Shown here piece by piece: positions 1 through 43,150 of a stretch of 64,000 nt of DNA. Source of the DNA: an uncultured beta proteobacterium (GTDB lineage: Bacteria; Pseudomonadota; Gammaproteobacteria; Burkholderiales; SG8-41). The position numbers and the translations under genes were made by a program. Under the pieces are notes generated by a model that saw nothing but the letters and a program-made list of their open reading frames with translations, had not been told where the DNA came from and did no database searches. Position 1 is the stretch's first letter, and the number at the start of each line of letters is the position of its first letter. The stretch is taken from assembly GCA_963828715.1 (NCBI GenBank), contig CAWHFX010000018.1:9178-73177 (forward strand), given 5' to 3'.

Positions 1-268
1 ACCAACGGAAGAGGCGCTCTCCAGAGACCGACCGTCCATGTCGTCGTCTAGTCTGACCCCGGTGTTCGAGAGGATGTCAAGGACCTGCCCACGATATTCC
101 GTGAACTCGGTGTGGCCAAGAGCTCGATTTATTCGGAAATCAGCGGGATCCGAATTGGTGCCGTCAGCAGCCGCAGGAGTCGTGCCGTCGTGAACGCAGT
201 CCGGCAATTCCCGCACTTGCGCTCACGCAGGCTCACCCGGTACGCTCCGCATCCTGGAGGTTTCGCGG

Positions 269-1225
269 ATGGACCTGTCTCGTCGAGAAGTACTTGCCAG
301 TGCTGCGGCCGCCGTCGGCGCCGCGGCGGTGACGTCAATCGTCGCGGAAGCGCAGGGGGCACGCCCGGCCGCGCGAACGCGGCCAGCGAACGAGCCGTTC
401 GGCTATTGCCTGAACACCAGCACGATCCGCGGCAATAATCTGGACCTCCCGGGCGTCATTACCGCGGCGGCGAAGGCGGGGTTCCACGCGATCGAGCCGT
501 GGATCATGGAGATCGATCGCTACACCACCGCCGGCGGCACGCTCAAAGATCTCGGCAAACGAATCGCCGACGCCGGCCTCACCGTGGAAGACGCCATCGC
601 CTTCAATTCGCTGCTCGATGATGACGATACGCGGCGTGCAGCCTCGATGGAGAAGCTGAAGGCCGATATGGACAAGCTGGCGCAGATCGGCGGCAAACGA
701 GTCGCGGTCCCGCCGGGCAACAGCCGCGCCGGCGCCGTCAGCCTTGACAACGCGGCGCGGTACTATCGAGAGGCGCTCGAGATGGGCGAGAAGATGGGCG
801 TCCAGCCGCTGCTCGAACTCTGGGGCACGCACCCCGTGCTCGGCCCGCTGTCACACGGCATCTATGTGACGGTCGCCGCGGGACGCGTTGACGCCAGCCT
901 GCTGCTCGATGTGTTTCACCTGTATAAGAGCGGGACGCCGTTCACCGCGCTGAAACAGATCAACGGTGCGTCGCTGCACGTGATGCATCTCAACGATTAT
1001 CCGCAGGCCGCCGATCCGTCCACGCTCAACGACGGAAATCGGATCTACCCGGGGGACGGTGCCGCGCCACTCGCTCAGATTCTGCGCGATCTGCGCGACA
1101 ACGGCTTTCGCGGGTATCTCTCGCTGGAGCTGTTCAACAAGGAGTACTGGGCGAAGAGTGCGGACGACAATCTCAAGACCGCGATGGAAAAGATTCGCGC
1201 CACAGTGCGCGCGGCGATGGCCTAA
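269..1225 (+). CDS. Tat-exported sugar phosphate isomerase/epimerase (xylose-isomerase-like TIM barrel)
   Basis: Intact 318-aa ORF. N-terminus MDLSRREVLASAAAAVGAAAV looks like a twin-arginine-type leader. The body resembles xylose-isomerase-like TIM-barrel proteins. Same architecture as 23880..24794. Confidence 0.75.
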   Translation: MDLSRREVLASAAAAVGAAAVTSIVAEAQGARPAARTRPANEPFGYCLNTSTIRGNNLDLPGVITAAAKAGFHAIEPWIMEIDRYTTAGGTLKDLGKRIADAGLTVEDAIAFNSLLDDDDTRRAASMEKLKADMDKLAQIGGKRVAVPPGNSRAGAVSLDNAARYYREALEMGEKMGVQPLLELWGTHPVLGPLSHGIYVTVAAGRVDASLLLDVFHLYKSGTPFTALKQINGASLHVMHLNDYPQAADPSTLNDGNRIYPGDGAAPLAQILRDLRDNGFRGYLSLELFNKEYWAKSADDNLKTAMEKIRATVRAAMA

Positions 1226-1232
1226 CCAGAAT

Positions 1233-1316
1233 GGGTGCTACAGGGTGCTACAGAGGGTTCTATAAGGTTCTACGGGGTTCTACAAGGTTCGTTCTTACCG
1301 GGTTCTGCCAGGGTCC
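1233..1316 (+). repeat. 10-bp-phased GGTTCTAC-type repeat array (left arm)
   Basis: gggtgctaca gggtgctaca gagggttc tataaggttc tacggggttc tacaaggttc ... ggttctgcc. The GGTTC(T)AC core recurs every 10 nt. The last units overlap the 3' end of the 3D-domain gene. Confidence 0.8.
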
Positions 1317-1681
1317 ACAATTGTTACCTGAACGGAGCGGCGGCCGAAGCGTCGTGCCGCCGCGCAATCGGCGACGTACAGATCCACTTGTCGATTGCGC
1401 ACCCGAGGACCGGTGTCGAGAACGCGGTAGATCCCGTTGTATGGCACAGCGCCTTCAATCCGAATCACCGTTCCAATAGGCAGCACCTTTGGATCTGCCG
1501 CGACAACGCCTGTGGAGACCGGGGCGCCGGACGCTGTCACCCGGCCGGTGCAATACGCGGTGGCCGTGAAGTTCTGAGGTTGAGCGCTGGGCACTGGCGG
1601 TGCGGTGACCGGGGGCGTCCGCTTGGCGCACGCGGCCAGCAGCAACAGGAAGACGAGTGCATGTCGCCTGAGAGCAGTCAA
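1295..1681 (-). CDS. 3D-domain (MltA/RlpA-like) lipoprotein
   Basis: 128-aa ORF. It has a signal peptide plus lipobox-like LLLLAACA. FTATAYC...SGAPV..GVVAADPKVLPIGT...YRVLDTG...VDLY is typical of 3D-domain proteins. Confidence 0.75.
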   Translation of the reverse strand: MTALRRHALVFLLLLAACAKRTPPVTAPPVPSAQPQNFTATAYCTGRVTASGAPVSTGVVAADPKVLPIGTVIRIEGAVPYNGIYRVLDTGPRVRNRQVDLYVADCAAARRFGRRSVQVTIVDPGRTR

Positions 1682-1720
1682 TGGCCAGTCTGGATAGTCG
1701 ATTCTGCTGGATTCTGCCAG

Positions 1721-1762
1721 GCGAACGAACCCTGCAGAACCTCGTAGAACCTCGTCGAACCC
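1721..1762 (-). repeat. 10-bp-phased GTAGAACC repeat array (right arm, inverted relative to 1233..1316)
   Basis: gcgaacgaac cctgcagaac ctcgtagaac ctcgtcgaac cc. Exact 10-nt period. It is the reverse complement of the GGTTCTAC units on the other side of the 3D gene. Confidence 0.8.
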
Positions 1763-1765
1763 GAT

Positions 1766-2456
1766 TTAAGTGATCTGAGCCGCAATCGCGCCGACGCCTT
1801 CGATCGATCCTTCGAGCCGATCGCCCGGCTTCACCGGGCCGACGCCTTCCGGTGTGCCGGTGTAAATGAGATCGCCCGGTTGGAGATGGTAGTACCTGCG
1901 ACAGGTGCGCGATGACGGCTGGGACACTGTGAATCAACTGCGAGATGTCGGATGACTGCTTCGTCTGACCGTTGACGCGCAGCTCGATGCGCGCGTGATT
2001 GGGATGACCGATGTCGACGGCGGGTGCGATTTCGCCGAGCACCGCTGACTGCTCGACGTCTTTTGCGATGTCCCACGGTCGCTGCTTTTCTTTCGCGACC
2101 GATTGCAGATCACGACGGGTCATGTCCAGCCCGCACGCATAACCAAACACGTGGTCCAGCGCCTCGGCGTCAGCAACCCGAAACCCCGGCTTGCCGATCG
2201 CGACGACCAGCTCCATCTCGTAGTGATAGTTCGTCGTGCCGGGAGGATAGGCAATGTTCGATCCCGAAGGCGCGTAGTGCTCCGATGCCTTCATGAAATA
2301 GAACGGCGCCTCGCGATCGACAGCACCGCCCATCTCTCTGGCGTGCGCCTCGTAGTTACGACCGACACAAAAGATCCGGCGAACGGGAAATCGCTCCGCA
2401 CGTCCGCGGATCGGCGCCGCGACCGGTGACGGAGGTGGAAAGACGAATTCAGTCAC
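1766..2456 (-). pseudogene. Fumarylacetoacetate hydrolase (FAH) family protein, one frameshift
   Basis: N-terminal frame reads MTEFVFPPP...RIFCVGRNYEAHAREMG...ELVVAIGK...AVIAHLSQ. Past an extra base near 1895 (caG|Gtac on the minus strand), a second frame reads [42 protein letters not shown] with its stop at 1766..1768. Total length is 3n+1. Confidence 0.85.
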
Positions 2457-2528: not shown

Positions 2529-5250
2529 CTACTGCGGCGCCCGTCCGTCCGACGAAGCCGTCTGCTTCAGCACCTCGAACCAGTTGACGATCACGTGTGG
2601 GATGGCTGGTCTCTCCGGGAGTCCTTTGAGCAGCAGGAATCGGCCATCCGATGCGACGTCGAATTCTTCCAGGCCAAGTCCGTCGACGCCGCCGGAGTCA
2701 GGAACATCGAGCAGGAGTTGGGGACGAACACCGGCAAGTCCGTCCTTGCCCACCTTGACCACGAACATGTGCCGTCGATTGGAACCAAGGCCGCGATAGA
2801 AGAGCTCGGTGCTGTCACGAGACCATCGCAGCGGGCTGCTGCCGGCGGTCGAGACCTGCCAGCGTGTGCTCGAGACGTTTGGATACGGGCTGACGTAGAT
2901 CTCACTGATGCCCGACTCGCTCGACCGGTACGCCAGCCAGCGTCCGTCGGGCGAGAGCCTCGGGGTGCGCGCACGGGCCACGAGCATCTGCGCCTGACCC
3001 GTTGCCAGGTCCAGCACCTTGACGCCATCCGCATCCGTGCCAGTGACCGAGTAGATGATCTTCGTGCCGTCGGCAGAAACGGACGCCGGGTATTCTCCGC
3101 CGCTCGCGTAGGCCTGCGCGAGTGGACCCGCGGTTACCTGCGTTGGCGTCCCGGCACCATCAGCGCGCTGTCGGAACAGCCGCCCAAGCGCACCGAGCTG
3201 CGGACGCGACGCAAAGAGAAGGGTCCCGCCGTCGGCCGTCCACAGCGGCGTTTCGCTGATGCCCGCGTCGCGGGTGATGGTACTGAGCGCATGGCGCGCG
3301 AAGTCCCACACCACGATGTTCTGCTTCCCCATCGTCGCCGACTGCTCCAGCGCGACGCGCGTCATGTCAGGCGACAGCACCGGTCTACCGTATGGGCCGC
3401 GCGGCAGCTCGATCGTCGTCGTTTTCCCCGAGCGGTCCACCCACAGCAGGTCGGCATCCGTGCGTCTCTCTGAATTCGGGATGTAGGCCAAGGTGCCCGT
3501 CGAGGACACGCTGAAGTGCGCGGCACCGCCGTTGTTGAAGCGGATACCGGGCATCACCGCGACCGATGGGCCGGTCACTTCGAGGCGTGTTCGGTCGAAT
3601 GGGGCGGCCATGAGCACGCCGGTTCTCAGATAGAGAAGATGGCCGGTCGGCGAGTAGACGGCGGAGTGCCCGGTCCGATCCATCAGGACCCGCCACTTCT
3701 TCGTCGGCAGATCGACGATTCCGATCCGGACCTCCTCCAGAGAGCCCTTGAAGATCGTAAAGAGGTACCGCGCGAGTCCCCGCAACAACGCTTGGAAACC
3801 TGTGCGCAACCTCGCCGGCCGATCGATCGACCGTCGTGATCTGTTCGCGCGGTCCACCGGTCTCCGCCATGCGCGAGATGCCGGAGCCGCCCCCGGAATA
3901 GATGTAACCGTCAGCCGACCAGACCACGCCGCGATCGTTCGTGTCGATGGGGCCGATCTCGAACGGTTGACCGCCGGTGACGGCCGTGCGCCAGAGCCTT
4001 CCACTCGAGACGAATCCGATCTGCGAGCTGTCCGGTGAAAAGAACGGGTTATAGGGGTTCTCGGCCGACGACGACACGATGCGCACGTCATCGCCGCGCA
4101 GGTCCCGAACGTATACCTGCGGACCGGCGCGATCGACGGCGACGTACGCGAGATGAGTTCCGTCGGGCGAGATCGCCACCCCCGGCCCGCTCGGGCCGTC
4201 CCAGCTCACATCCTCGGGCCATTCGATCGTGAGTTTCAGCGCCGGCAGCGACCTGGGAACGGGCCACATTCTCCATGCAACCGTCCCGGCGATGACCGCG
4301 CCGGCCACGAGGCCGGCCGCAAGCATGCCCCACGAGACGCTCGCGCGTCTGGCGCTCTGAGTCAGGGAAGGTGTTCCAGCGGATCGCGACACCTCGGTGG
4401 CGTCTCGAATCTCGAGACGCGCGACGCCGATGTCGGACAAGCGATCCTTCGCGTCTTTGCTGAGGCATCGTCGCAGGAGGCGATGCACCGATGCGGGCGT
4501 CTCGTCAGGAAGAGCGGACCAGTCGGGTTCGCCTCGCACGACGGCGGCGAGAATGTCGGTAATGTTGTCACCCGGAAATACCATCTTCCCGGTCAGCATC
4601 TCGAAGAGCACGCACCCGAATGCCCAGATGTCCGTGCGCTTGTCGACTGGCTTCCCTTTCGCCTGCTCGGGCGACATGTAAGCGGCGGTGCCAAGAATGA
4701 CCCCCTGCTGCGAAACATTCGCTCGGACGGTCGGGCTCAGAAATGTCGGAGAATTGCCGTCGGGCGGCGCCACCGCCGCCGCGTCGCGCGCCTTCGCCAG
4801 TCCGAAGTCCAGCACCTTGACCACGCCGTCGATGCGGACCTTGATATTGGCGGGTTTCAGATCGCGATGAATGATGCCGCGCTCGTGCGCGGCTTCGAGA
4901 GCGTCCGCGATCTGTGTGGCGATCGACAGCACGTCGTCGAGCGGCAACGCGCCTCGCGAAATGCGCTCGGCGAGATCTTCGCCCTCGACGAGCTCCATCA
5001 CGAGTCCGGCGCCTTCGAGACCGTACACGTGGGCAATGTTGGGGTGGTTCAGGGACGCGAGCGTTTGCGCCTCGCGCGAGAAGCGGGCGAGGCGCTCGGG
5101 GTCGGCGGCGAACAGGTCGGGAATGATCTTGATCGCAACGTCGCGGTTGAGCGATGTATCACGCGCGCGATAGACCTCGCCCATCCCGCCTGCGCCGATG
5201 ACCGACACAATTTCGTACGAACCGAGCCGGGCACCTGAGGTCAGCGGCAT
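2529..5250 (-). pseudogene. Ser/Thr protein kinase with TM segment and TolB-like beta-propeller region, one frameshift
   Basis: Kinase motifs [34 protein letters not shown] lie in the frame of ORF 3385..5250. Propeller-type SPDG/FSPD repeats lie in the frame of ORF 2529..4091. Removing one base near 3764 joins the frames as ...HRFPSVVAGTRAV|LFTIFKGSLEE. Confidence 0.85.
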
Positions 5251-5294: not shown

Positions 5295-8015
5295 TCAGCG
5301 ATCAATGGGTTGCGAACGTTCGCCGTCGTCCACGGCGTCGCGCGCGTGTCCAGCTGGAGGAAGCGCCGCGAGAAACGTCAGGAGCTCGTCGTGATCGACT
5401 GGCTTGACCATGTGGGCGTCGAAGCCGGCTTCGCGGGATTGCGCCGGTCTTCGTCCTGGCCCCAGCCGGTCAGCGCCACCAGCACCAGGTCCTTCCCCCA
5501 CGGCTGCTTGCGGATCTCGCGGCACGCTTCGTAGCCGTTCATTCTCGGCAGGCCGATGTCGAGCAGCACCACGTCGGGACGACGCGCTCGGCCGCCTTGA
5601 TCGCTTCGAGGCCATCGTGCGCCTTCCACGTCTGATGACCCGCCAACTCCAGCAGCATCGCAAGCGATTCGGCGCCGTCGTCGTTGTCGTCGACGATGAG
5701 AACACGACGGGAGACCGCCGTTGGAGTTGCGCGCAGCGACAGGTGCAAGTGGAACTGCCTCGGGTAATGCCGCCGCGAGCGGCAGACGGACGGTGAATTC
5801 GCTGCCGTGGCCGGGCCCGTCGCTACGCGCATCGACGCTGCCGCCGTGCAACTCGACGAGCGTCTTCACCAGCGTGAGTCCGATGCCGAGACCATCCCGA
5901 GAACGTTCCAGCGAAGTATCCACCTGCGCAAACATGTCGAACAGGCGTGGCAAATGTTCCGCGGCAATGCCGATCCCGTTATCACGGACGCGAACGACCG
6001 CCTCGCCATCGCCTTCCTCGACGTTGAGCCACACGTGGCCACCGGGGTCGGTGAACTTGCACGCATTGTTCAAGAGGTTTCCGATCACCTGTGCCAACCT
6101 CGCGGGGTCGGCGTCGAGCTGCAGCGTGCGCGATGGCTGGGTCACGGTCAGCTCGTGGTTCATGCTCCTGTATTGCGCACGAACAGCTTCGACGGCCTGA
6201 TCGACGATCGCCGCGAGATCGACCCGGCGTTTGCGCAGCTCGATGCGGCCGCGCGTGATGCGGCTCATGTCGAGCAGGTCGTCCACCAGCCGTGACATCT
6301 GGCCGACCTGCCGCTCGAGCATGTCGGCTGCCGATTGCACCGCTTCGGCGTCGCCGCCGAGTTGCAGTGCCCGCGCCGCATTGCTGATCGGCGCCAGCGG
6401 GTTCCGCAACTCGTGCGCCAGCATCGCGAGGAACTCGTTCTTGCGTCGGTCCGCCTCGGACAGGTCCGCCGCGAGGCGTCGGAGGTTGTCCTCCAGCCGC
6501 CTCCGCTCGGTCACGTCCTGGCTCACGGTCGCCAACGCGATCGGACGACCCGAGGCGTCCGGCAATGCAAGCACCTTGTACGCCATCCAGCGGGCGTCAC
6601 CGGTTTTGAAGTGGCGGAACCGCACTTCGATCTCACCGTGGCCGCTCTCGAGCACCGACGGAAGGAATTCCTGCGTGATCCGGTGTTGATCTTCCGGAAA
6701 GAAGAACGAGGCCACGGGAGTACGCCGCGCTTCGTCCATGTCGTCGAGTCCGACCATCGCGAGCCCGGCGCGATTGACGAACAACGGCACGCCCGCCATG
6801 TCGCAGATGCCGATGAAGTCGGTGCTGTTTTCGACTAGCGTGACAAACTTCTCCTTCTCGGCCTCGGCTCGTTTGCGGTCGGTGATGTCGCGCACGATCT
6901 TCGACGCGCCAATGACGGTGCCGGCGGCGTTCTTGAGCGGAGAGATCGTCAACGACACAGCAATGTGGCTGCCATCGGCGCGCAGGCGCTCGGTTTCGAA
7001 ATGGTCGATCCGTTCTCCAGCCTTGAGGCTCGCTATGATCCGATCCTCTTCCGAAAGCCGGCCCGGTGGAATGATCAGAGAGATGTGGCGCCCCACGGCC
7101 TGCGCCGCCGGGTAGCCGAAGATCCGCTCGGCACCGGCGTTCCAACTCTGGATGATGCCGTCGAGCGACTTGCTGACGATCGCATCGTCGGACGATTCGA
7201 TAATCGAAGCGAGCAGGCGAGCGGTCATGAACTGCCTCGCCCGTTCTCGCTCGACCCGTCGCGTTTCGGAGACGTCGCGGAAGGTCAGCACGCATCCGGA
7301 CACGACGCCCTCGCTCGTCCCGAATCGGGGCGGCGCTGTCGTCGATCGGGCACTCGTCACCGTCTTTGCGAATCAGCAGGGTGTGATTCGCCAGTCCGAC
7401 AACAACGCCTTCACGAAGCGCCCGGATCGCCGGGTTCGCGACCGGCTGGCGGCTATCCTCGTTGACGATTCGAAATACGTCGTCCAATGGACGGCCGAGC
7501 GCCTCTTGCTGCGTCCAGCCCGTGACCGTTTCGGCCACGGCATTCATGAAGGTCACGCGAGCCTGCACATCGGTCGTGACGACCGCGTCGCCAATGCTGA
7601 GAAGCGTGACCCTCAGAAGCTCGCGCCGTTCGTTCGCCTGCGCCTGCGCCCGGCGGGCCGCTTCACCAAACACGATGATCAGCCCACAGGTGACGAAATA
7701 CGCGAGCATGCCGATCAATCCGGCAACACCGCCCATTGAGAACTGGCGCCTGGGCTGAATGAACAGGTAATCGCAGGCCGCAAAGCCCAGGATGACGACA
7801 GCAATCGCGGGCCTGACGCCACCGATCCACACCGCAGCGGCGACCGCTCCGAAGAGCGTGACGAGCGGCAGCGAGTCACCCATCCAGGGATCGAGCAGGT
7901 ATCGAACCAGAACTGCAGCGCCGATGGCGGCGACTGCCAGCATGTAGATGGTCAGCGGGCTTTGCGGTGTGGTGGTGGATCGTCTAACGAGTGATGGAGT
8001 TGGCTGATCGAGCAT
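5295..8015 (-). pseudogene. Hybrid sensor histidine kinase (membrane DUF4118-like, PAS x3, HisKA, HATPase_c, REC) with at least 4 frameshifts
   Basis: Start MLDQPTPSL at 8015. HisKA motif FLAMLAHELRNPL and HATPase motif DNGIGI..GLGIGL are present. REC pieces RRVLIVDDNDDG / RPDVVLLDIGLPRMNGYE / EAGFDAHMVKPV lie in three different frames. Frame changes are near 7308, between 5712 and 5790, near 5585 and near 5440. Confidence 0.85.
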
Positions 8016-8167
8016 TTCCTCATCAAGAGAGGCCTTGCACGGGCATAGTAGCTCACCATGGCGGCGAGTCAAATCCCGGTCGCACCCGGCACGAATCGAG
8101 CGGCTGAGGTAGCCCCGTGGCTGCACGCTGACGCGTTCTGCCTCAGCGTGCGGTGGGCTGCGGCAGG

Positions 8168-8290
8168 TACGGAGTGCACGGAACGAGATCAACACGGAGT
8201 CACGGGGGCACGGAGGGTAACTACTTTGGGTTTCTCCGTGGCTCCGCGTCTCCGTGTTGATCTTGTCCCGTGTGCTCCGTAACCTCCGTC
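8168..8290. repeat. Long imperfect palindrome built of CACGGAG/CTCCGTG units (hairpin downstream of the NlpC/P60 gene)
   Basis: The left arm tacggagtgcacggaacgagatcaacacggag... pairs with the reverse complement of ...ctccgtgttgatcttgtcccgtgtgctccgtaacctccgtc. The core AGATCAACACGGAG / CTCCGTGTTGATCT is a perfect 14-bp inverted repeat. Confidence 0.75.
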
Positions 8291-8844
8291 TAGCGGCGCG
8301 GTCGCCGCAGAAGCACGTCAGCGATCTGCTCCAGCACCCGGGTCGCGGCCTTCCGCCGCCCGCTTGGCGACGATGTCGGCTGCGGGAGAGGGTCAGGCAC
8401 TTCGAGGGTGTCGTCGCTGTCCGGGATCCTCCTCGCGAACATGAACCGTTCACCCCAATAGTCGTCGTCCAGGCTGTCGCGACGGACGTTTCCGTGTCGC
8501 TTGCTGGCGTCGATCATCACGCCGTTATCCTCGTAGATGCCGACGTGGGTCACGAGCGTTCCTCCGGGATCAGTCGAAAAGAACACGAGGTCGCCGCGCT
8601 GCAGTCGCCGACCGACGGGCTCCCCGGACGCCGACTGGCTGATCGCCCGTCGCGGAAGATCGATGCCGTACTTTCCATACACGTACTGAATGAGCCCCGA
8701 GCAATCGAACGAACTGGGACCCTCGGCTCCCCACGCATAGGGTCGGCCGATCAGGGTGGCGGCCAGGGCGACCGGATCCGCCGAAGCAGGGATAGCGAGC
8801 GAGAGACAACACAGAGCGATCGCGCACGTGGTTCCTGGAGACAC
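8290..8844 (-). CDS. NlpC/P60 (C40) family cell-wall peptidase
   Basis: 184-aa ORF with a signal peptide. GRPYAWGAEGPSSFDCSGLIQYVY (catalytic Cys context) and HVGIY match NlpC/P60. Confidence 0.85.
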   Translation of the reverse strand: MSPGTTCAIALCCLSLAIPASADPVALAATLIGRPYAWGAEGPSSFDCSGLIQYVYGKYGIDLPRRAISQSASGEPVGRRLQRGDLVFFSTDPGGTLVTHVGIYEDNGVMIDASKRHGNVRRDSLDDDYWGERFMFARRIPDSDDTLEVPDPLPQPTSSPSGRRKAATRVLEQIADVLLRRPRR

Positions 8845-9052
8845 GTCGACCTACTTCCCGGAGAGGCAGATTGTGCGGATCGCGAAACGACGCTGGGCAA
8901 AACGAGCGCCAGCACGGCGCCGCGGCAAATCGCACGCCGACACACCGATCGGAATTGATCCCGTGCCGACGAGCTGTCCGGTACGGCGGACGCCAGGCAC
9001 ACTCGTGGTGACACTCTCTGGTGACCGGGCGACGCTCGCACTATCCTGAAGT

Positions 9053-9892
9053 GTGCCCGAACTTCCCGAGGTCGAATCCGTGCGGCGCCGGATCGCGCCG
9101 AGCATGGTGCGCGCGAGGATAGACGCCGTCGACGTTCGGCGGCCAGACTTGCGCCGGCCGTTCCCCCGTCATTTCGCCCAGCGACTCACCGGCCGGACGG
9201 TCGTCGCCCTCGACAGGCGCGCGAAATACCTGGTCGCATCCTTGTCCTCTGGCGAGACCCTCCTGATGCACCTGGGAATGTCGGGTTGGTTTCGGGTGAT
9301 CCGGGACACACGCGTCAGCGGAACCGCCGGCAAGGCGAGGCGGCTTGAACCGCACGATCACGTCGTATTTCACATGTCATCGGGACGGGCGGTCGTCTTC
9401 AACGATCCACGTCGGTTCGGGATGATGGAGCTGGTGCGGGCCAACCATCTGCCCCAGCATCCGGTACTCAGCACGCTTGGACCTGAACCGTTGTCCGACG
9501 CGTTTGACGGTGCGGCGCTCGCACGCGCGTGCCAACGGAAGAAGACCTCGCTCAAGGCGGCGCTGCTGGACCAGCGCGTCGTCGCCGGTCTCGGGAACAT
9601 CTATGCCAGCGAGGCGCTGCACGTTGCCGGGCTCTCGCCACGCCGTCCCGCCTCGATCCTGGCCACCCCTTCGGGAGCTCCACGTCCGGCGGCGCACCGA
9701 CTGGCCGCAGCGGTCAAACAGGTGCTCGAGGATGCGATCGCGCGGCAGTTCAAGCCGGCGTACCGTGAGGCGCGGTTTCTCGTCTACGACCGGCAGGACG
9801 AACGCTGTCCGAAGTCCGGCTGTACCGGCACGATCCGTCGGCGCGTGCAGGCCGGACGATCGACGTTCTATTGCCCGGTGTGTCAGCGCTGA
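9053..9892 (+). CDS. mutM: Formamidopyrimidine-DNA glycosylase
   Basis: N-terminus MPELPEVE, H2TH region, and C-terminal zinc finger CPKSGC...YCPVCQ. 279 aa. Confidence 0.9.
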   Translation: MPELPEVESVRRRIAPSMVRARIDAVDVRRPDLRRPFPRHFAQRLTGRTVVALDRRAKYLVASLSSGETLLMHLGMSGWFRVIRDTRVSGTAGKARRLEPHDHVVFHMSSGRAVVFNDPRRFGMMELVRANHLPQHPVLSTLGPEPLSDAFDGAALARACQRKKTSLKAALLDQRVVAGLGNIYASEALHVAGLSPRRPASILATPSGAPRPAAHRLAAAVKQVLEDAIARQFKPAYREARFLVYDRQDERCPKSGCTGTIRRRVQAGRSTFYCPVCQR

Positions 9893-9894
9893 GG

Positions 9895-11865: not shown

Positions 11866-11867
11866 GT

Positions 11868-12935
11868 TCAGTTCAGCAGCTTGACCCGGATGTTCGCGTA
11901 CGCGGTCACGCTGTACGTATCGTGTGACTGAAACGCGATCGTGCCAGGTGCGATCTTGCGGCTGGCCGTATCGTAATTGCTTTGCCAGTCGGCCGGCTGC
12001 GTCCAGCGGACGACTTCCTGTCCCTTCAGCGAGATGGTGATCGTGTTCGCCTCACCTTTGATCTCCATCGGAATCCACTCATCGTCTTTTCCCGGGACGT
12101 TCGACAGATCGACGACGTGGTAAAGGCTGCCGGTACGAATGCGATCGCTGTGGCTGTTGTTGACCTGAATCTCGAAGCCCTTCCCTGGAAACCCCTGCGG
12201 CTGGAACTCGGTCATGACGTAGACGCCACCGTTCGATCGATAGCGCGCGAGCACGTCGAGGCGCAGATCGAAATTCTGGAACGAATGGTTGCCGACCGGT
12301 CCGTCGTAGAACAGGTGCGACGCCTGGCCGGCCGCGTTGGCCACGACGGCACCGTTCTCGACCTTGAATGAATCAGGATTCGCACTCGCCTTCCAGCCGG
12401 TCAGGTCCTTGCCGTTGAAGAGGCCGACGTAGCCGGACTCGACCGTCCGGCTCGGCGGCGCCGGCATCGCCACCGGGGTGTACCTGACGTAGGTCGCAGT
12501 GCGGACCGGCGTCATGGAACCATCGGGGAGAGAGTTGCTCGACTCCAGCGTCAGCGTGTCGCCGGTCAGCGAGTAGACCTGTCGCCCCGAGCTCGGCCCC
12601 CCTCGGCCGCCGGTGACCGCCGACATCACCACGAGCTTCGATCCTTCCCAGTTCGCGGTAAATACCGCGATCGGTGCGGCTGCCCCTCCTTGGCCGCCAC
12701 CGATCGGGGTGCGTGTTTCGGCGTTCAGTTTGAGGGTTACCGACTCGGGATTGTTGAGCGGCGTGCGGATCGTCACGCTGTCGGCCGTCTGCGTGATGGT
12801 GAATTCGAACGGGTTCGCCTGTCCGCTATTCGGATTCTGTGGCCGCCACGTGCCCGACAGGTTCGGCGGCGCCTGGGCTATCCCAATCAATACAACGGCC
12901 GTTGCCAGCCACACGGTCACTATCGCGCGCTTCAT
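11868..12935 (-). CDS. DUF1080 (3-keto-disaccharide hydrolase-like) domain protein, secreted
   Basis: Likely start MKRAIVTVWLATAVVLIGIAQA at 12935. C-terminal half GLFNGKDLTGWK...GFEIQV..TGSLY...GTIAFQSH is DUF1080-like. Confidence 0.7.
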   Translation of the reverse strand: MKRAIVTVWLATAVVLIGIAQAPPNLSGTWRPQNPNSGQANPFEFTITQTADSVTIRTPLNNPESVTLKLNAETRTPIGGGQGGAAAPIAVFTANWEGSKLVVMSAVTGGRGGPSSGRQVYSLTGDTLTLESSNSLPDGSMTPVRTATYVRYTPVAMPAPPSRTVESGYVGLFNGKDLTGWKASANPDSFKVENGAVVANAAGQASHLFYDGPVGNHSFQNFDLRLDVLARYRSNGGVYVMTEFQPQGFPGKGFEIQVNNSHSDRIRTGSLYHVVDLSNVPGKDDEWIPMEIKGEANTITISLKGQEVVRWTQPADWQSNYDTASRKIAPGTIAFQSHDTYSVTAYANIRVKLLN

Positions 12936-12999
12936 GTTCAGCTCCTTCAGTGCGGTCATGCTACACCGTATCCTGCACGGCTGACTGGCCTCGGAGGGA

Positions 13000-14772
<1,773 letters not shown>

Positions 14773-14779
14773 TGGTTCA

Positions 14780-14943
<164 letters not shown>

Positions 14944-16623: not shown

Positions 16624-16733
16624 CGCGAACTTCAGACTACCTGAATCCAGCCACGAGCCGCGAGCCGTCCTTCGACTCGCGTAAACTAGGACGCTCAGGG
16701 CAGCCCAGCAGCCAGGAGCCAGCAACGAATAGA

Positions 16734-17117: not shown

Positions 17118-17160
17118 GTCAGCACTCTATGCCGAATTGTACTGTCTGGGTTGCGTGCCT

Positions 17161-17232
17161 CCGTTCGCCTTCGTTCGCTTCGTTGCTTCGTTGTGAACTC
17201 CGTTCCCTCCGTCTCCTTCGTCCCCTCCGCCA
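17161..17232. repeat. CTTCGTT / CTCCGT simple repeats in a divergent intergenic region
   Basis: ccgttcgccttcgttcgcttcgttgcttcgttg...ctccgttccctccgtctccttcgtcccctccgcc. Confidence 0.6.
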
Positions 17233-34356: not shown

Positions 34357-34919
34357 GATCAGCGCTCCGACGGGCAAAACCCATGCCTTGCGTCGAACCC
34401 TGCCCCGCACGACTAAAACACTCAACTCAATGGCAAGACTGGCGAGCGTCGAATTTCAAAAACAAGCGGAGCTCCGTCAAATTGGTGATCACCCCCGGTG
34501 ACGGTTTCGCGCTTAGTGTGCTTCAGCGGTAGTGGGCCGGGTCTGGGAAGCGGAGAACCCACTGGGAGTTCCGCACCCATCACGGTCGTTCTGAACTGGA
34601 TGGCCGCCCTCAAGCGATGAACGCGGAAGACTCGAGGCCTTCTAACGGGTCGCCGCGCGGGTCCACAACTACCACCTTCGTCTGGCTGGCAGGCTCCGAT
34701 GTAGCGATTCCAAATCGCTAGCGCCGGAGGGCGTGTTCGGACATAATCAGCGCGCTCCCAAACTTTCGAAAACATGACTCCTGCCACTGGCAGCCGCTGG
34801 CCGTACGAGATTGGTGTCCCATCCGACTCCCCCGCCACACGGCTCAGTCGAGACCACGCCGAAGCTCTCTGCCAATCGCACCCGAGCCACGTGAGTCGTA
34901 GCCAAGCGAAAAGAACGCG

Positions 34920-37536
34920 ATGAAAGCTGGTGACACGCTCGGGGCGTATCGCGTCCTGGGCAAGCTTGGCGAAGGCGGAATGGGTGAGGTCTATCGCGCG
35001 CGCGATACGAAGCTCAATCGCGACGTCGCGATCAAGGTCCTGCCGGAGATCTTCGCGCTCGATCCGGATCGCCTGGCGCGGTTCACGCGCGAGGCGCAGT
35101 GCTGGCGTCGCTGAACCATCCGAACATCGCCGCGATCTACGGGATCGAGGGAGCAGGCGCTGGTGATGGAGCTGGTCGACGGCGAGGACCTGTCGGCAAT
35201 CATCGCGCGCGGTCCGATGCCGATCGCCGAGGCGCTCCCAGTCGCGCGGCAGATTGCGGACGGCGCTCGAAGCGGCGCACGAACAGGGCATCGTCCATCG
35301 CGATCTGAAGCCGGCGCAACATCAAGGTCCGCGCCGACGGCACGGTGAAGGTGCTCGACTTCGGCCTCGCGAAGGGCGATGGATCCGGCATGGCGTCTGT
35401 CGAGCGCGGACGCGATGCACTCACCGACGCTGACGGCGCGTGCGACCCAGCTCGGCGTGATTCTCGGAACGGCGGCCTACATGGCGCCGGAGCAGGCGCG
35501 CGGCAAGGCGGTGGACAGGCGCGCCGATATCTGGTCATTCGGCCTCGTCGTTTACGAGATGCTGACGGGTCGCCGCGCCCTCCAGGGAGAGGAAATCGTC
35601 CGACGTGCTTGCCGCCGTGCTGCGCCAGGACATCGACTGGTCCGCGCTGCCATCCGACACGCCGCCGCGTCTGCGCCGGCTCCTCGAGCGTTGTCTCGAT
35701 CGCGACGTCAAGCAGCGCCTGCGCGATATCGGCGAGGCGCGAATCGCGCTGGGAAGCGCCATCGAGTCCGAACCGGCGCCCGGCCGCCCGGCGCGGCGCT
35801 CGCCGCTCTGGGTGCTTGCGGCGCTGGCGTCCGCGTCTTTGGCTGTGGCGGCGTTCGTGGTGTTGAACCGGCCGGCCGCACTTCAGAAACCCTCGATTCG
35901 CTTCACGATTCCGCTTCCGCCTGGCGAGGAGATCACGTCGTACCCAGCGATTACACGCGACGGTCGCACACTCGCCTATGTCACCGAGCGGGGGGCCAAC
36001 GATGCGCAACTCTACCTGCGCGATCTGAATGCGTTCGAACCGCGCGTAGTGGCGGGATCGAGCGGCGCGCGTCAGCCGTTTTTTTCACCTGACGGCAAAT
36101 GGATTGCGTTCTTCGCCCAGGGTCAGCTGCAAAAGGCCGAGGTGACCGGCGGTGCTCCCGTCCGGCTGACCGAAGCCGCATATCCTTTCGGCGGGACGTG
36201 GAACGACGACGACACGATCATTTACGCCGCATCGCTCGGCTCAGGCCTCCTGCGGATCAGAGCGAGCGGCGGCAGTCCTGAATCACTGACCAAACCTGAC
36301 GGCGCGGCACAAGGATACGCTCACGTGTTTCCGCAAACGCTTCCCGGTGGACGGAGCGTGCTGTTCACGATGTGGGGACAGACACAGGGCAGCAAGGTAC
36401 TATTCCTGGATTCAGGCCAGTCGGATCTGATCCTGCGGGGGGAGAATTTCGCCGCCGCGACCTTCCAGGCAACCGGCGGCTCGAGCGGTCGTCTGCTGCT
36501 GTCCGATCAGGTCGCCGGCATCCGGGCGGCGCCGTTTGACGTCGCCCACCCGGTGCCGACGAGCGCCGATGCGTCGGTGCTGACGAACGTGAACTACGAG
36601 GTGGAAACCGAAAGCGTCGGCTGGCTGGCGGTCTCGAACACCGGCACCGCCGTGTACGCGACTGGCAACCCGTCGCGAGCGTCGCTGGTCTGGGTCGATC
36701 GCGCGGGAAAAATCGAGTCGCTCGGCACCGGGCAGGAGAAGTATCGGGAGGCCAGCCTCTCGCTCGACGGACAGAAGGCCGTCGTCAGGGACGGTCTCGA
36801 CCTCTGGATTCATGACCTGCAGCGCGGCACGCGAAGCCGCCTGACCTCGGGCACCGGCAGCAATATCCTTCCGCAGTGGAGCCGCGACGGCACACGGATC
36901 GTGTTCGCGTCGAATCGAGGTGGCGACTGGGACATCTACGGGCAACCGGCCGATGGGGCGCGGCCTGCGGAAGCGCTGCTCAAGCGGCCTCACGATCAGT
37001 TTCCACTTGCGCTGCTGGCCGACGGGACGCTGCTCTACACCGAGATCGATCCGAAGACCGGCCGGGACCTCTGGATTCTGTCTCCGGATGGGAAGACCTC
37101 TCCATTGCGGGTCACGCCTTACAACGAAACCGCGGGTCAGTTCTCCCCGGGCCCGGAGGGCGGCCCTCGCTGGCTCGCTTATTCATCCGACGAATCGGGA
37201 CGGAGCGAGATCTACGTGCAGTCATATCCGGGCGGCGCGAACAGGATCCCGGTCTCGACCGGCGGTGGCATCCTGCCGATGTGGTCGCCCGACGGCAAGG
37301 AACTGTTCTATGTGACAGGAGACGCGGTCGTGGCCGTGCCGTTGCGGCCTGACGGGTCCTTCGGCGCGCCTCAACGGCTATTCGACCGATCGACCATGCT
37401 GTTCAATCACCGGTTCCACAGCTACGGTGTCTCGCACGACGGCAAACGGTTCCTCGTGATTCTGCGCGATCCGGGATCGGTGCCGCGGCAGCTCAACGTG
37501 ATTCTCAACTGGACTGACGAGATCGGCCGACCATGA
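34920..37536 (+). pseudogene. Ser/Thr protein kinase with TolB-like beta-propeller region; 6 indels confined to the kinase domain
   Basis: Kinase pieces [27 protein letters not shown] / [16 protein letters not shown] / LVMELVDGEDLS / IVHRDLKPA / VKVLDFGLAK / GTAAYMAPEQARGK are scattered over three frames. Changes are near 35099, 35155, 35262, 35317, 35375 and 35598. From 35605 to 37536 a single 643-aa frame is open (TM plus FSPDGK/WSPDGK blades). Confidence 0.85.
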
Positions 37537-37664
37537 GTGTCGCCGCGGGTACACGACTCGGCTCGTACGAAATCAGCGCCGCAGGGGTTCTGGGTCAGGA
37601 GGGCAATGACCGACTGCGAGTTGCGGATCGAGGCGCCTGCCCGGCACACGGCAGGACGGCATGA
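37533..37664 (+). pseudogene. 43-codon relic of a kinase gene, ATGA-overlapped with both neighbours
   Basis: MSVAAGTRLGSYEISA... matches the N-terminal consensus of the neighbouring kinases (compare MPLTSGARLGSYEIVS at 5250), then diverges. Its ATG overlaps the upstream stop (37533..37536) and its TGA overlaps the downstream ATG (37661..37664). Confidence 0.5.
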
Positions 37665-40231
37665 GTAGCGTCACGTCAGGCGTCCACCTCGGGCCATATC
37701 TGATTACGCAGCCTATCGGTGCGGGCGGAATGGGCGAGGTGTACCGCGCCCGCGACACCAGGCTCGATCGCGACGTCGCGATCAAGGTCCTTCCCACGCT
37801 GATTGCGCAGGATTCCAATCGTCGTGCGAGGTTCGAACGTGAAGCGCGCGCCGTCGCGGCGTTGACCCACCCGAACATCCTCGCGATTCACGACGTCGGC
37901 ACGCACGACGGCACGCCATACCTGGTGACCGAATTGCTCGAAGGCGAAACGCTGCGTCAGCGGCTTGGGGAAGGAGCCCTGACGCCGCGCAAAGCTGTCG
38001 AGATCGCCGTCCAGATTGCCAGCGGGTTGGCGGCGGCGCACGAAAAGGGCATCGTCCACCGCGACCTCAAGCCGGAGAACGTCTTCGTCACCCGTGTCGG
38101 CCGGGTCAAGATCCTCGACTTCGGGCTGGCCGCACAGTTGACCGACAACGCCGGCGATGCCGACTCGCCGACGATCGCTGGCGGCACCGAGCCCGGCGTG
38201 ATCCTGGGCACCGTCGGGTACATGTCGCCGGAGCAGGTCCGCGGCGCGAAAGTCGATCATCGAACTGACATCTTCGCCCTGGGCGCCGTCCTCTTCGAGC
38301 TGCTCACCGGGCGGCGCGCGTTTCAGCGCGACACGTCCGCCGAGACCATGACGGCGATCCTGAAAGAGGACGTTCCGGAACTCTCGTCGACGGGACGCCA
38401 AGTACCACCACCGCTCGATCGCATCGTCCGGCGGTGCCTGGAGAAGAATGCCGACGAGCGGATGCAGGACGCCCGCGACGTCGCGATCGCGCTCGAGGCC
38501 GTCTCAGGCAGCGATGTGTCGACGTCCTTCAGCGCGCTCGAGCCGCCGATGACGTCGCGCCGATCCTGGCGACTCCTGGCGCTTGCCATCGCGCTTCTCG
38601 TCGCCGGCGCTGGCCTGGGCTTTCTCGCCGCGGCAATGAGGACGCCAGCCGCGGTGTCCTCCGAGCTGCCTCGCTTCCGCCAGCTGACGTTCCGACGAGG
38701 CGATGTCCGCAACGCACGGTTTGCGCCCGACGGTCAGAACATTCTCTACAGCGCCCTCTGGGATGGTGAGCCGCAACGCATCTACTCGGTTCGTCTTGAA
38801 CGCCCCCGCGCCGACGCTCCGGCGATAGTCGACGCCCTGCTGCTCGCCGTCTCCCTCTCGGGCGACATGGCCATCGCCACTGGTCCGCAGCGTGAGAATC
38901 TCTTCGTCGATCGTGGGACGCTGGCGCAGATTCCGCTGAGCGGCGGTGCACCTCGCGAGTTGCTGGAGGGCGTCAGCCAGGCCGACGTTGGAGCCGACGG
39001 ACGCATCGCGGTCGTGCGTTCGGACCGCGGTCGCATGCGGCTCGAGTTCCCCATCGGCACGCTGCTCTACGAGACAGCGGGATGGCTGTCGTTCCCGCGC
39101 GTGTCACCCGACGGCAAACGCGTCGCCTTTAACGAGCACCCGTTGCACGACGATGACCGTGGGTGGCCCGCGATGGTGGAGGTGGCGAGCAAGGCCAAGC
39201 GGAATCTGCTGCCTGAACAAGACTCGGTCTCCGGTCTCGCTTGGACGCCTGACGGCCAGAGAGTCTGCTTCGGAAGCTTCGCGTCGATCCTGTGCACACC
39301 GATCGAGAAACCTGCATTACGGGTCGTGGCGAGAGGCACGCAGTGGTTGGTGCTCCAGGACATTGCCAGCGACGGCCGGATGCTCGCCGTGACGCAGGGC
39401 ATGCACGGGGCACAGGTGGCAGGCGAAGTGGGCGGGCGCGAAGTCGACCTCTCGTGGCAGGACGTCGCGTTTCCGGTCGATTTCAGCCCAGATGGCCAGC
39501 GTCTCCTGTTCGGAAGCCTGGACTACGGGGTCCATCTTCGCGGGCTCGACGGCGGTCCGCCGATCCGGCTCGGAGAGGGCATTCCGGCAGGGATCTCACC
39601 AGATGGTCGATCTGTGCTCGCGCTCGCGCCTGGGGTGCCGACGACGATCGCGATTGTCCCGACTGGCGCCGGTTCGACTCGGACCCTGCCCCGCGGGGCA
39701 CTCGACGCGCATACCGGGGCGGCGTGGATGCCTGACGGCCGTCATGTCGTGATTTCAGCATCCGAGCCCGGGCACGGCTCGCGCCTCTACCTCCAGGACA
39801 CGGTTGGCGGCGAACCGCGGGCTTTCAGCGGTGAGGGCGCACGGCTCACGACGTATCTGCCGCGGGTCGTGTCACCAGACGGCCGCTTCGTGATCGCGGT
39901 CGCACCGGATCAGCGACCCGCGCTCTACCCCATCGCTGGTGGCGACCCCCAGCCGATCGCGGCGCTCGGGAACGACCTCATGCCGATCGGGTGGGGTGAA
40001 AGTTCCGAAGCCATCTTCGCGAAGGGCCGCACGCTCGGTCGTCTGGTCCCCGTGTTCAAGATCGATCTCACGACCGGACGCCGCCAGCCGCTGAAGGAGG
40101 TCGGCCCGGCCGACCCGACGGGCGCTCCGATGGTTTTGTCGGTCCAGGTCTCACGCGACGGCCGCCGTTACGCCTACTACGTGTCGCAGCCGCTCGGGAC
40201 CGTCGTGCTCATCGAAGGCGTCAAGCCGTGA
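37661..40231 (+). CDS. Ser/Thr protein kinase with TM segment and large beta-propeller-like C-terminal region, intact
   Basis: [46 protein letters not shown]; a TM segment near aa 300; FAPDGQ/VSPDGK/FSPDGQ/ISPDGR/VSPDGR blade signatures. 856 aa. Confidence 0.9.
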
Positions 40232-42735
40232 CGTCATCGAAGCTCGACGCACTGGTGATCGGTCAAAGCCTCGGCCCCTATCAGATTCTTGCAAAACTGG
40301 GCGAAGGGGGAATGGGCGAGGTCTATCGCGCGCGCGACACGAAGCTCGAACGCGACATCGCGCTGAAGATTCTTTCCGCCGAGTACACGCGAGACGCTGA
40401 ACGTGTTCGGCGCTTCAAACAGGAAGCCACCGCAGCGTCGAGCCTCAATCATCCGAACATTCTCACCATTCACGAGGCCAGCGAAGCGCAGGGTTGTCAG
40501 TTCATCGCGACGGAATTCATCGATGGAGAAACCCTGCGTCAGATGCTGAGTCGGGGCGAGAACCTCCCGCCGACCGAGGCTCTCGCCATCGCCGTGCAAG
40601 TCGCATCGGCGTTGGCAGCGGCGCACCAGGCGGGCATCGTCCATCGGGACGTCAAGCCGGAAAACGTCATGGTGCGACGGGACCGCTACGTCAAAGTCCT
40701 GGACTTTGGGATCGCCAAGCTGACCCAGAGGAATGGACCGATCGACACGAACACTTTTACCCAAACGCAGGCCCACACCTACGCCGGCGCAATCATCGGG
40801 ACCTTGCCGTACATGTCCCCGGAGCAAGCCCGCGGCACCGAGGTAGATGCGCGCTCTGACATCTGGAGCATGGGATGCCTCCTTTACGAGATGCTCGCAG
40901 GACGTTCGCCGTTCGCGGGCGGCACCACGACTGATGTGCTCGTGGCGATTCTCGACAAGGAGCCGGCGCCACTCGCAAAACTCGATCCTCGAGTCCCTCC
41001 CGAATTCGACTGGATCATCGGCAAAGCGCTGCGTAAGAGCGCTGCCGAGCGGTACCAGACAACGGAGGAGTTGCTGGTCGACTTGCGGCGGCTGCAGCAG
41101 AAGCTCGACTTCGAGTCACATCAGCAGCGCGTGCTCGGTCACGATGTTCCTGTCGTGGCGGCACCAAGTCCCTCCGAGAATGCGCCGGCATTGCCGAGCG
41201 ACCAGCCCGGCCACCGTCGAGTGACTTCGCGCCTCGTTGCTGTCACGATCAGCGGCGCGCTGATTGCGGCGGCGCTGGCGTCCGCGTGGTACTGGCAACA
41301 GCGCAAGGCTCTTCCTCAATTTCAGGTCCATTCGCTGGTCGTACTCCCGTTGAAATCGCTCGACGCGAACGACAATTACCTCGGTTTGGGCATTGCGGAT
41401 GCCGTGATCCGGAAGACCAGCCAGACCGGCGAGTTAATCGTGCGCCCGACCAGCGCCGTCCGCCGCTACCTGAATGACGACACCGATGCACTCACGGCAG
41501 CACGGCAGCAAAGCGCAGACGTCGTGCTCGAGGGGAGCGTGCAACGCGCGGGCGACCGCTTGCGGGTGAGCGTAAACCTGTTGCGCACGGCCGACGGCGT
41601 GTCGATCTGGGCCGACAGTTTCGAGATGCGCACGACCGACATCTTCGATATCCAAGACACGGTTGCTCAGCAGGTGGCGTCGCATTTGCGGCTCAAGCTG
41701 GACTTGTCGCAGCAGGCGCGGCTTGCCAAGCGACAAACGACGAATCCGATCGCCTACGAGTTCTACCTCAAGGGTCTCCATAAATTCGATCAACGGCTGT
41801 CTATGACCGACGCACAGATTGCCAGCACCATCGACTTCTTTCGGAAGGCGGTCGAGGCGGACCCCAAGTTTGCGCTGGCACACGCGCAGCTCGCGTACGC
41901 GTACGCCACCATCGCCGTCTTCTCGCAGACGGCCGATGACAGTGTGGCCAATCAAGCCAGGTCTGAAATCGGGCAGGCGCTGGCGCTCGATCCAGAACTG
42001 GCCGAAATCGCGCTGGCTCGTTCTCAACTACTGTTCAGCCGATACGAAGGATTCCAGGGCGCGGAGGCTGTCCGCGTGCTCCTCGCCGCCGAGCGACTCG
42101 ACCCCAACATCGGTCACGCCGAGTTGGGCTATCTCTACAGCCACCTCGGACTATCCGATCTGGCAGAACGCGCATTGCAACGGGCGCTGGAGATCGATCC
42201 GACCAGCGAGTTTGCGAAAGGGCAGTTGGACGCCACTTACGAATTCGGCGGACAATTCGACCGTTGGGTCGAGGCGCATCCGCGATTAGAACCGAACCTG
42301 CCCATCGATCCGTGGTATTTCCTGGCCACAGGCCGCCTGGACGACGCGGACCGTGCCATCAAACAGGCTGACACAGCCACCACCATGGGGCAGGCCAGCC
42401 TCTTGTCGGCCAAAGCACTGCTCGTTGGGATGAGAGGTGATTTCCAGGCGGCGCAGGCAATGATTCCCTCGATTCTCAAGCGTTACGCGGTCAAGGACCC
42501 GTTCTATCACCACGCGTCGTACGCAATCGCCGGCATCTACGCGACGGGTGGAAAAAGCGCCGAAGCGGTCAAGTGGTTGAGGGAAGCATGCGCGACGGGG
42601 TTCTCTGCCTACCACTACTTCGAGCACGTCGCCTTCCTCGATCGCATCAGACAAGCTCCCGAATTCGTTCAGTTCATGGCGGAACTGAAAGCGACCACGG
42701 ATCGGTATCACCGCGAGTTCGAATCGGCCAGATGA
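40228..42735 (+). CDS. Ser/Thr protein kinase with TM segment, TolB-N-like region and TPR repeats, intact
   Basis: The GTG start overlaps the upstream stop (GTGA). [47 protein letters not shown]; C-terminal TPR-like helices (AYEFYLKGLH..., ALELDP...). 835 aa. Confidence 0.9.
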   Translation: MTSSKLDALVIGQSLGPYQILAKLGEGGMGEVYRARDTKLERDIALKILSAEYTRDAERVRRFKQEATAASSLNHPNILTIHEASEAQGCQFIATEFIDGETLRQMLSRGENLPPTEALAIAVQVASALAAAHQAGIVHRDVKPENVMVRRDRYVKVLDFGIAKLTQRNGPIDTNTFTQTQAHTYAGAIIGTLPYMSPEQARGTEVDARSDIWSMGCLLYEMLAGRSPFAGGTTTDVLVAILDKEPAPLAKLDPRVPPEFDWIIGKALRKSAAERYQTTEELLVDLRRLQQKLDFESHQQRVLGHDVPVVAAPSPSENAPALPSDQPGHRRVTSRLVAVTISGALIAAALASAWYWQQRKALPQFQVHSLVVLPLKSLDANDNYLGLGIADAVIRKTSQTGELIVRPTSAVRRYLNDDTDALTAARQQSADVVLEGSVQRAGDRLRVSVNLLRTADGVSIWADSFEMRTTDIFDIQDTVAQQVASHLRLKLDLSQQARLAKRQTTNPIAYEFYLKGLHKFDQRLSMTDAQIASTIDFFRKAVEADPKFALAHAQLAYAYATIAVFSQTADDSVANQARSEIGQALALDPELAEIALARSQLLFSRYEGFQGAEAVRVLLAAERLDPNIGHAELGYLYSHLGLSDLAERALQRALEIDPTSEFAKGQLDATYEFGGQFDRWVEAHPRLEPNLPIDPWYFLATGRLDDADRAIKQADTATTMGQASLLSAKALLVGMRGDFQAAQAMIPSILKRYAVKDPFYHHASYAIAGIYATGGKSAEAVKWLREACATGFSAYHYFEHVAFLDRIRQAPEFVQFMAELKATTDRYHREFESAR

Positions 42736-42745
42736 GGAATAGTCT

Positions 42746-42780
42746 CTGGCTGCTGGCTGCTGGCTGCTGGCTGCTGGCTG
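42746..42780. repeat. (CTGGCTG)x5 perfect tandem heptamer
   Basis: ctggctgctggctgctggctgctggctgctggctg, directly after the stop of the last kinase gene. Confidence 0.9.
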
Positions 42781-42809
42781 AATGGTGACTGGAAACCTTA
42801 GACCGCTCC

Positions 42810-43150
42810 ATGCCCCACCTCGATCCGGTGCTGCTCTCCGACGCGCGCGTCGTCGCCGCCTACGCCATTTTCATCGGCAGCTACTTCGTGTTCGCGCTCG
42901 GGAAGTTCCCGGGGATGAAGATCGACCGCCCCGGCGCCGCCATCATCGGAGCCGTGCTGATGGTCGCGTTCCGCATCGTCGGCGCACAGGAAGCGCTCCA
43001 ATCGGTCGACTTTGCGACCATCGTGCTGCTCTTCTCGATGATGTTGATTGTCGCGAACCTGCGCCTGGGAGGATTCTTCGAGCGGATCGCGGAATGGATC
43101 GTGGAGCGGCTGCAGCCGCATCACCTGCTGCCGACCGTCATCTTCACGTG
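42810..43150 (+). pseudogene. 5' fragment of an ArsB/NhaD/CitMHS-type anion permease
   Basis: MPHLDPVLL...[39 protein letters not shown]...[33 protein letters not shown]...LLPTVIFT is family-typical. After about 43148 the frame reads non-membrane junk because it is antisense to the Bug fragment. Confidence 0.65.

Follow-up and report, generated by a model that had tools for sequence, protein, structure and literature searches.

One-base frame breaks packed into short stretches of a soil bacterial genome are best explained by errors of the assembled consensus

The 64,000-nucleotide (nt) stretch analysed here, called the window throughout, is C18:9178-73177 of the genome of an uncultured beta proteobacterium (contig CAWHFX010000018.1), and the finding covers its positions 1-43150. 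In this part, one-base insertions and deletions (indels) break the reading frames of a FAH-family hydrolase, two serine/threonine (Ser/Thr) kinases, a hybrid histidine kinase, a pair of small open reading frames (ORFs) and the dab operon, which encodes an inorganic-carbon pump. The genome comprises 6.96 Mb in 23 contigs with a guanine-plus-cytosine (GC) content of 63%, and although the contigs are few, it is estimated to be just 85.5% complete. The 31-mers of the window were found solely in soil and rhizosphere metagenomes, and the genome is therefore taken as a soil metagenome-assembled genome (MAG); it is probably a long-read assembly.

Frame breaks were located with a dicodon Viterbi scan of seven states (six frames and non-coding), trained on the genome itself and with in-frame stop codons forbidden. 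A first codon-level model, under which much coding DNA stayed unassigned, was replaced by the dicodon model. A change of frame was counted as a break when the strand stayed the same and no stop codon was close by. The scan was cross-checked with the coordinates of Pfam profile matches on the separate pieces and with Logan contigs, assembled from short reads of soil metagenomes, which were aligned to the window at a minimum identity of 88-91% (relatives) or at least 98% (same population). In these alignments a base left out of the short-read contig corresponds to an extra base in the window. When random indels were spiked in silico, about 44% were recovered, with sensitivity varying less than 2-fold over the GC range. 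In a comparison of spiked insertions with spiked deletions, both were recovered equally (41 of 111 each) and the direction was assigned correctly in 98%. The false-positive rate, judged from the window, was near 8%. Two calls, at 25870 and 25955, were discarded as false positives at an ordinary gene junction because contigs at least 98% identical span 25865-26032 without a gap. No genome close enough for comparison at the DNA level was present among 30 relatives, the best match being about 68% identical and to paralogues.

The first three broken genes lie on the minus strand. The FAH-family hydrolase gene (1455..2456) carries one break of the +1 type near 1890, where the scan also switched frame; positions 11-167 of PF01557 (FAA_hydrolase) match in 1893-2351 and positions 171-213 in 1772-1888, in different frames. 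A Ser/Thr kinase with a PD40 propeller (2529..5250) has its Pkinase and PD40 parts on two overlapping ORFs, with a Viterbi switch at 3799 and an extra base within AGGTACC at about 3764; one base is left out there by short-read relatives in runs X1 and X2. The adjacent hybrid histidine kinase (DUF4118-PAS-HisKA-HATPase-REC, 5295..8015) contains four breaks, a base being missing at 5442 and at 5581 and an extra base being present at 5732 and 7307. The scan switched at 5573, 5702 and 7320. Its domains occupy successive frames as DUF4118/PAS, PAS/HisKA/HATPase, REC 2-39 and REC 40-86, and compensating indels of relatives were found at 5442, 5581, 5732 and 7307/7308 in up to four runs. Farther along, a minus-strand pair of small ORFs (23347..23891), probably the one described in an earlier note on this DNA as a thioredoxin-like fragment, gave no Pfam match and is separated by one extra C at 23652 (context cAGTACCtgg).

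The dab region, also on the minus strand, contains 10-12 breaks, and ten Viterbi switches fell in 27939-32663. Downstream of dabB, a second PF00361 (NuoM/N-like) gene (27492..28344) has extra bases at 27941 and 28091, both left out by contigs from four runs, and matches positions 84-169 and 228-294 of the profile in different frames. The NuoL-like dabB (28349..30275) is broken at 28351, 28933 and about 29613; Proton_antipo_N (PF00662) with positions 1-68 of PF00361 is followed by positions 76-228 in successive frames, one base is left out at 28351 and at 28933, and contigs with one gap cover 29449-29769. The dabA gene (PF10070, 30277..33215) lies in five frame pieces, with breaks at 30273 (and 30285), about 31424, 32142 with 32151, 32367 and 32661. 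Indeed, the DabA profile segments 1-71, 91-179, 180-242, 243-425 and 437-747 are colinear on the five differently framed pieces, and one base is left out by short-read relatives at the break sites. An intact DabA from a genome of the same order (G024) was tried as a reference for placing the breaks and abandoned, being only 33-41% identical and too distant. Of the 12 further genomes in the genus none has DabA, but three of eight genomes from other families in the order do; the operon is likely accessory or horizontally acquired. GC reaches its highest values in the window, 67-70%, across the dabA-dabB operon with the extra PF00361 gene (27492-33215).

The last broken gene, a second Ser/Thr kinase with PD40 on the plus strand (34905..37536), has six breaks within 35094-35596, in the catalytic domain: 35094, 35152, 35261, 35312, about 35375-35423, and 35596 (Viterbi switches 35094, 35145, 35259, 35312, 35423 and 35596). 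Pkinase positions 1-34 and 153-199 lie on separate fragments, one base is left out by relatives at 35152 and 35261, and the PD40 part lies in the intact frame 35599-37521 (641 codons). Thus six breaks occur in the first 0.7 kb of the gene and none in the following 1.9 kb. Four Ser/Thr kinases with PD40 or TPR sensor halves lie within 43 kb (2529-5250, 34905-37536, 37661-40231 and 40228-42735), the last three in tandem. Throughout the broken genes of the window no in-frame stop was found, and every fragment retains full coding signal and colinear Pfam coordinates.

Taken together, the scan, the Pfam matches and the short-read contigs gave about 23 frame-changing one-base indels in 1-43150. The earlier note had counted about 21, placed non-randomly, and this was borne out in the genes that it named, as were its counts for the hydrolase (one), the first kinase (one), the hybrid kinase (four), the small ORF (one) and the second kinase (six); for the dab genes 10-12 breaks replace its eight or nine. 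Its impression of a mixture of +1 and -1 changes gave way to a clear imbalance, with about 18 of the 23 being extra bases (+1) and at least one apparent -1 resolving into two +1 events separated by 9 nt. The sites that were validated fall in runs of 1-3 bases and mostly outside homopolymers, in keeping with what had been noted by eye. Three stretches with breaks stand out, spanning about 1.9-7.3 kb, 27.9-32.7 kb and 35.1-35.6 kb. When 23 points were placed uniformly in 43,150 nt by simulation, a maximum gap of at least 16.3 kb was reached with P = 0.0004 and a variance/mean ratio of at least 2.34 with P = 0.0009, which upholds the argument that uniform error would not have left 15 kb clean. 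Among the candidate sites, 15 of 24 (including 43255, just beyond the region of the finding) lie in six 1-kb bins with GC of at least 0.67, and five further bins of the window with GC of at least 0.67 are free of candidates.

The two blocks judged clean by eye, about 8.0-23.3 kb and 35.6-43.1 kb, also proved clean to the automated scan, which found no switch in 7954-23300 or 35600-43150 apart from ordinary stop-adjacent junctions in the former. The first block (7954..23300) holds about 12 genes with full-length Pfam matches, among them Fpg, a GSDH-cytochrome c protein, two intact hybrid kinases, an AMP-binding enzyme and a RES/Xre pair, and comparison of 7900-23400 with the same short-read references gave only intergenic or locally compensated indels. 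The second, on the plus strand (35600..43150), comprises the remainder of the broken kinase and two intact Ser/Thr kinases of 835-856 amino acids with full Pkinase matches (1-256/263), in uninterrupted frames at 35599-37521, 37697-40222 and 40225-42720. Intact paralogous hybrid kinases and Ser/Thr kinases thus lie near the broken members of the same families.

The short-read contigs provided an independent view of the break sites. Relatives cover most of the window and differ from it by one inserted or deleted base at nearly every switch or a few bases away from it, with compensating indels at 3764, 5442, 5581, 5732, 7307/7308, 23652, 27941, 28091, 28351, 28933, 30273, 30285, 32142 with 32151, 32367, 32661, 35152 and 35261. 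Nearly all of these differences are an extra base in the window, the exceptions being 5442 and 5581, where a base is missing. At all four breaks that contigs at least 98% identical span (23652, 28091, 35152 and 35596), these contigs lack the extra base of the window; at 23652 it is absent in two runs (X1, over 415 nt with 1 mismatch, and X17). None of the contigs in this identity class, drawn from four soil runs, carried an indel of the window, and in up to seven runs none of the related or near-identical contigs covering the sites carried its lesions.

The same scan gave 1,175 frame-switch candidates in the whole genome, on all 23 contigs. With a sensitivity of about 44% and about 8% false positives, the true number of indels is therefore probably about 2,000-2,500. 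Of the candidates, 900 were +1 and 275 were -1 (77% +1); where checked, +1 calls corresponded to bases left out of the short-read contigs, and -1 calls to bases put in or to two nearby extra bases. The candidates were over-dispersed, with a variance/mean ratio of 3.5 in 5-kb bins, 55 bins with at least five events against about 2 expected, and 26% of neighbour distances below 300 nt against 5% expected. Clusters of at least three events numbered 103 and held 618 of the 1,175 candidates (53%) in 3.1% of the genome, with a median span of 1.8 kb, a maximum of 7.6 kb and 1.6-7 events per kb; clean runs of 45-62 kb also occurred. Candidate density rose with GC, from 1.1 per 10 kb at 62-64% to 4.9 at 66-68% and 10 at 68-70%, and the rise exceeds what the GC bias of the detector explains, because that bias is less than 2-fold. 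Counted per 2-kb bin, density was 1.7-fold higher within 10 kb of contig ends.

Among the densest clusters of the genome is a second one at 330.5-336.4 kb of contig C10, with 28 switches in 5.8 kb of same-strand coding DNA. One-base indels in short-read relatives were found at seven of the switch positions that these contigs reach, and the flanks match short-read contigs at 99-100% identity. This cluster (L009, G000:C10:329000-338500, positions 1501-7364) also includes two segments with very high cross-mapping depth. A genome-wide contrast of nonsense with frameshift changes was weakly informative, because only 24% of spiked stop codons were recovered; the genome-wide excess was about 56 single-stop cases, which could also come from substitution errors.

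A search for sequence context at the candidates found GTAC, GGTAC and AGGTAC enriched relative to GC-matched control sites. GTAC reached its maximum right at the switch point, with 79 occurrences per 10-nt bin compared with a baseline near 25, whereas GATC was flat. At the isolated insertions the motif often reads GGTAC or GTACC. It lies beside 25.9% of the isolated candidates, against 7.7% expected, and beside 7.8% of those in clusters of at least five. Viewed from the motif, 2.5% of GTAC sites are affected, compared with a baseline of about 1.5%, and 6.8% of AGGTAC sites. Three breaks of the window are of this type: 3764 (aGGTACc), 23652 (aGTACCt) and 28933 (gGGTACt). Nanopore assemblies carry motif-specific systematic basecalling errors at methylated sites. 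The isolated insertions at GTAC are consistent with such a systematic miscall at a modified GTAC motif, for which the modified base is a presumed cause. The likeness lies in the over-representation of a short palindrome at isolated sites and not of the control GATC; the differences are that GTAC is hit at just a few per cent of its occurrences, that the dense clusters are not linked to the motif, and that GTAC methylation is putative. If the GTAC link does reflect DNA modification, it would hint at a GTAC-specific methyltransferase in the lineage.

These data favour, with high confidence, the reading that the breaks are errors in the assembled consensus of the soil MAG and not mutations of the organism. 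A technical origin is supported because the genome holds over a thousand events that are biased in direction and linked to a motif, the stretches ignore gene and domain boundaries, coding signal is kept without in-frame stops, and the extra bases are contradicted by near-identical short-read contigs from other samples. Of the two options left by the earlier note, gene-specific decay and a local assembly or consensus problem, the second is thus the one retained: the breaks are genome-wide, biased 900:275, absent from near-identical contigs and context-dependent at GTAC, and the decay of individual genes is contradicted by the abrupt end of the breaks inside an ORF, the intact paralogues and the preserved coding signal. 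A concentration in homopolymers was not found; this property marks the nanopore homopolymer subtype only and not consensus error generally.

In the proposed mechanism, two error processes would be superimposed. The first would introduce sparse one-base insertions throughout the genome, a sizeable part of them at GTAC through a sequence-specific miscall. The second would yield low-quality stretches, each 0.5-7 kb long and together making up about 3% of the genome, in which the consensus is near that of a single read and carries roughly 2-9 indels per kb; these stretches hold more than half of the breaks, independently of GTAC, and are commoner in GC-rich DNA. They would mark places of locally thin or ambiguous read support. 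Candidate causes are dips in depth, strain variants collapsed into one sequence, and long-read fill that was left unpolished in GC-rich DNA with few short reads. In the window, three such stretches would be separated by well-supported sequence, a layout that would give rise to the apparent specificity for genes and domains.

Several observations weigh against consensus error. A search among NANOPORE and PACBIO libraries found no run holding this sequence, so that depth and read support at the sites were not directly seen. Between 1 and 8100 no contig at least 98% identical spans a break, and the first stretch, 1.9-7.3 kb, was judged from relatives at 90-97% identity only. The short-read contigs stem from other samples, and even those at least 98% identical could represent sister strains. 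Most indels lie outside homopolymers, unlike classic nanopore error, and the insertion bias identifies no platform. Finally, the enrichment at contig ends predicted by low depth was not significant when counted per cluster (45 of 565 against 6.6% expected, P = 0.2).

Gene-splitting indels that remain in the consensus and depend on coverage are known from long-read assemblies and MAGs (PMC9262707; PMC12313526), and large Nanopore soil MAG catalogues built with a single Medaka round have been screened for such effects (PMC12313526); membership of this genome in such a catalogue is a candidate assignment. Like the long-read consensus indels described (PMC9262707; proovframe, 10.1101/2021.08.23.457338; PMC12313526), those found here form a genome-wide one-base excess that splits intact genes, lowers marker completeness, is absent from accurate short-read sequence of the same or related populations and is uneven along contigs. 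In contrast to the classic descriptions, in which homopolymer deletions prevail, 77% are insertions, most lie in runs of 1-3 bases, and more than half are packed into stretches of 0.5-7 kb that do not track homopolymer content.

Among the alternatives, mis-polishing comes closest, and it is itself very unlikely. It supposes that reads of paralogues or of other organisms in the community accumulate on conserved domains (kinase catalytic, receiver and NuoL-like antiporter) and corrupt the consensus there. The word depth of foreign short-read contigs was 800-2,700 over 34.75-35.6 kb and 50-70 over the receiver domain, compared with about 5 in the flanks, and mis-polishing would account for the stretches in the kinase and the receiver domain. 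However, the kinase domain at 4.5-5.26 kb carries no break although cross-mapping there is just as deep (500-2,100), no breaks interrupt those at 37.7-38.5 and 40.2-41 kb, the HATPase domain at 6.2-6.6 kb is clean at a depth of about 250, and dabA has five or six breaks without unusual depth. Kinase domains as a general hot spot were rejected as well, since tblastn found only nine kinase-domain loci in the genome and a frame change in just one of them.

Slightly less credible again is real and recent pseudogenisation of the dab operon, the two sensor kinases, the hybrid kinase and the other genes, whether by gene-specific decay or in a mutator episode. The indels are present in the deposited sequence, the affected genes are accessory, with DabA missing from the rest of the genus, and the indel-free contigs derive from other samples, all of which this explanation accommodates. 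It is difficult to reconcile with more than 1,000 events across the genome of which 77% have one direction, with isolated events concentrated at GTAC, and with the fact that near-identical contigs reach four of the sites and are intact at all four. As many as 28 breaks within 5.8 kb, or six within 0.5 kb, left the coding signal in place, with no in-frame stops in the genes of the window and no larger deletions, and in the kinase at 34905-37536 the breaks halt abruptly inside one ORF. A spread over whole genes, mixed lesions, an eroding coding signal and lesions shared in the population, which would characterise pseudogenes, were not found. The resemblance to Mycobacterium leprae and recently host-restricted pathogens lies in the many frameshifted genes; the genome described here differs in its +1 bias, multiple hits per gene with coding signal retained, sharp boundaries within genes, link to GTAC and intact near-identical copies.

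Fainter still is the chance that the dense stretches are real as recent, localised showers of one-base insertions in GC-rich accessory DNA (the dab operon and the sensor-kinase domains), produced by insertion-prone repair or replication alongside a separate, real GTAC hotspot. Functional recoding, by programmed ribosomal frameshifting or phase-variable contingency loci, has nothing in its favour beyond the existence of the frame changes and can be dismissed as negligible, given that single genes carry as many as six changes, that the sites contain neither slippery heptamers nor simple-sequence tracts, and that the relatives, near-identical ones included, have unshifted sequence.

On the preferred reading of consensus error, the biological significance of the breaks is low and their value is that of a warning for annotation. 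The genes for the dab inorganic-carbon pump, together with those for the hybrid kinase and both Ser/Thr kinases, are best regarded as intact but mis-assembled, not as pseudogenes or as cases of domain-focused damage. Gene calls, completeness estimates and pseudogene counts cannot be relied on over about 3% of the genome length, nor at many GTAC sites. The combination of a motif-linked background with motif-independent, GC-rich and insertion-biased dirty stretches would offer a compact diagnostic by which such MAGs could be flagged from the bare FASTA.

Some further features of the window lie beside the broken genes. Toward the end of the first clean block, a RES-domain protein (22325-22888) is followed by an Xre-type helix-turn-helix protein with an MbcA/ParS C-terminal antitoxin domain (22920-23219), and the two (22325-23219) are apparently an intact RES-Xre toxin-antitoxin pair. 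Beyond the tandem kinases, a CitMHS-type transporter gene (42816-43446) matches only positions 3-87 of the 336 of its profile, with a frame switch at about 43255 followed by a gene on the opposite strand; it is the remnant of a truncated gene or else one more error site, located just beyond the region of the finding. Farther on, the 5 kb at 44383-49349 have no coding signal under the dicodon model of the genome and a lower GC content of 57-60%, and may be foreign or atypical DNA.

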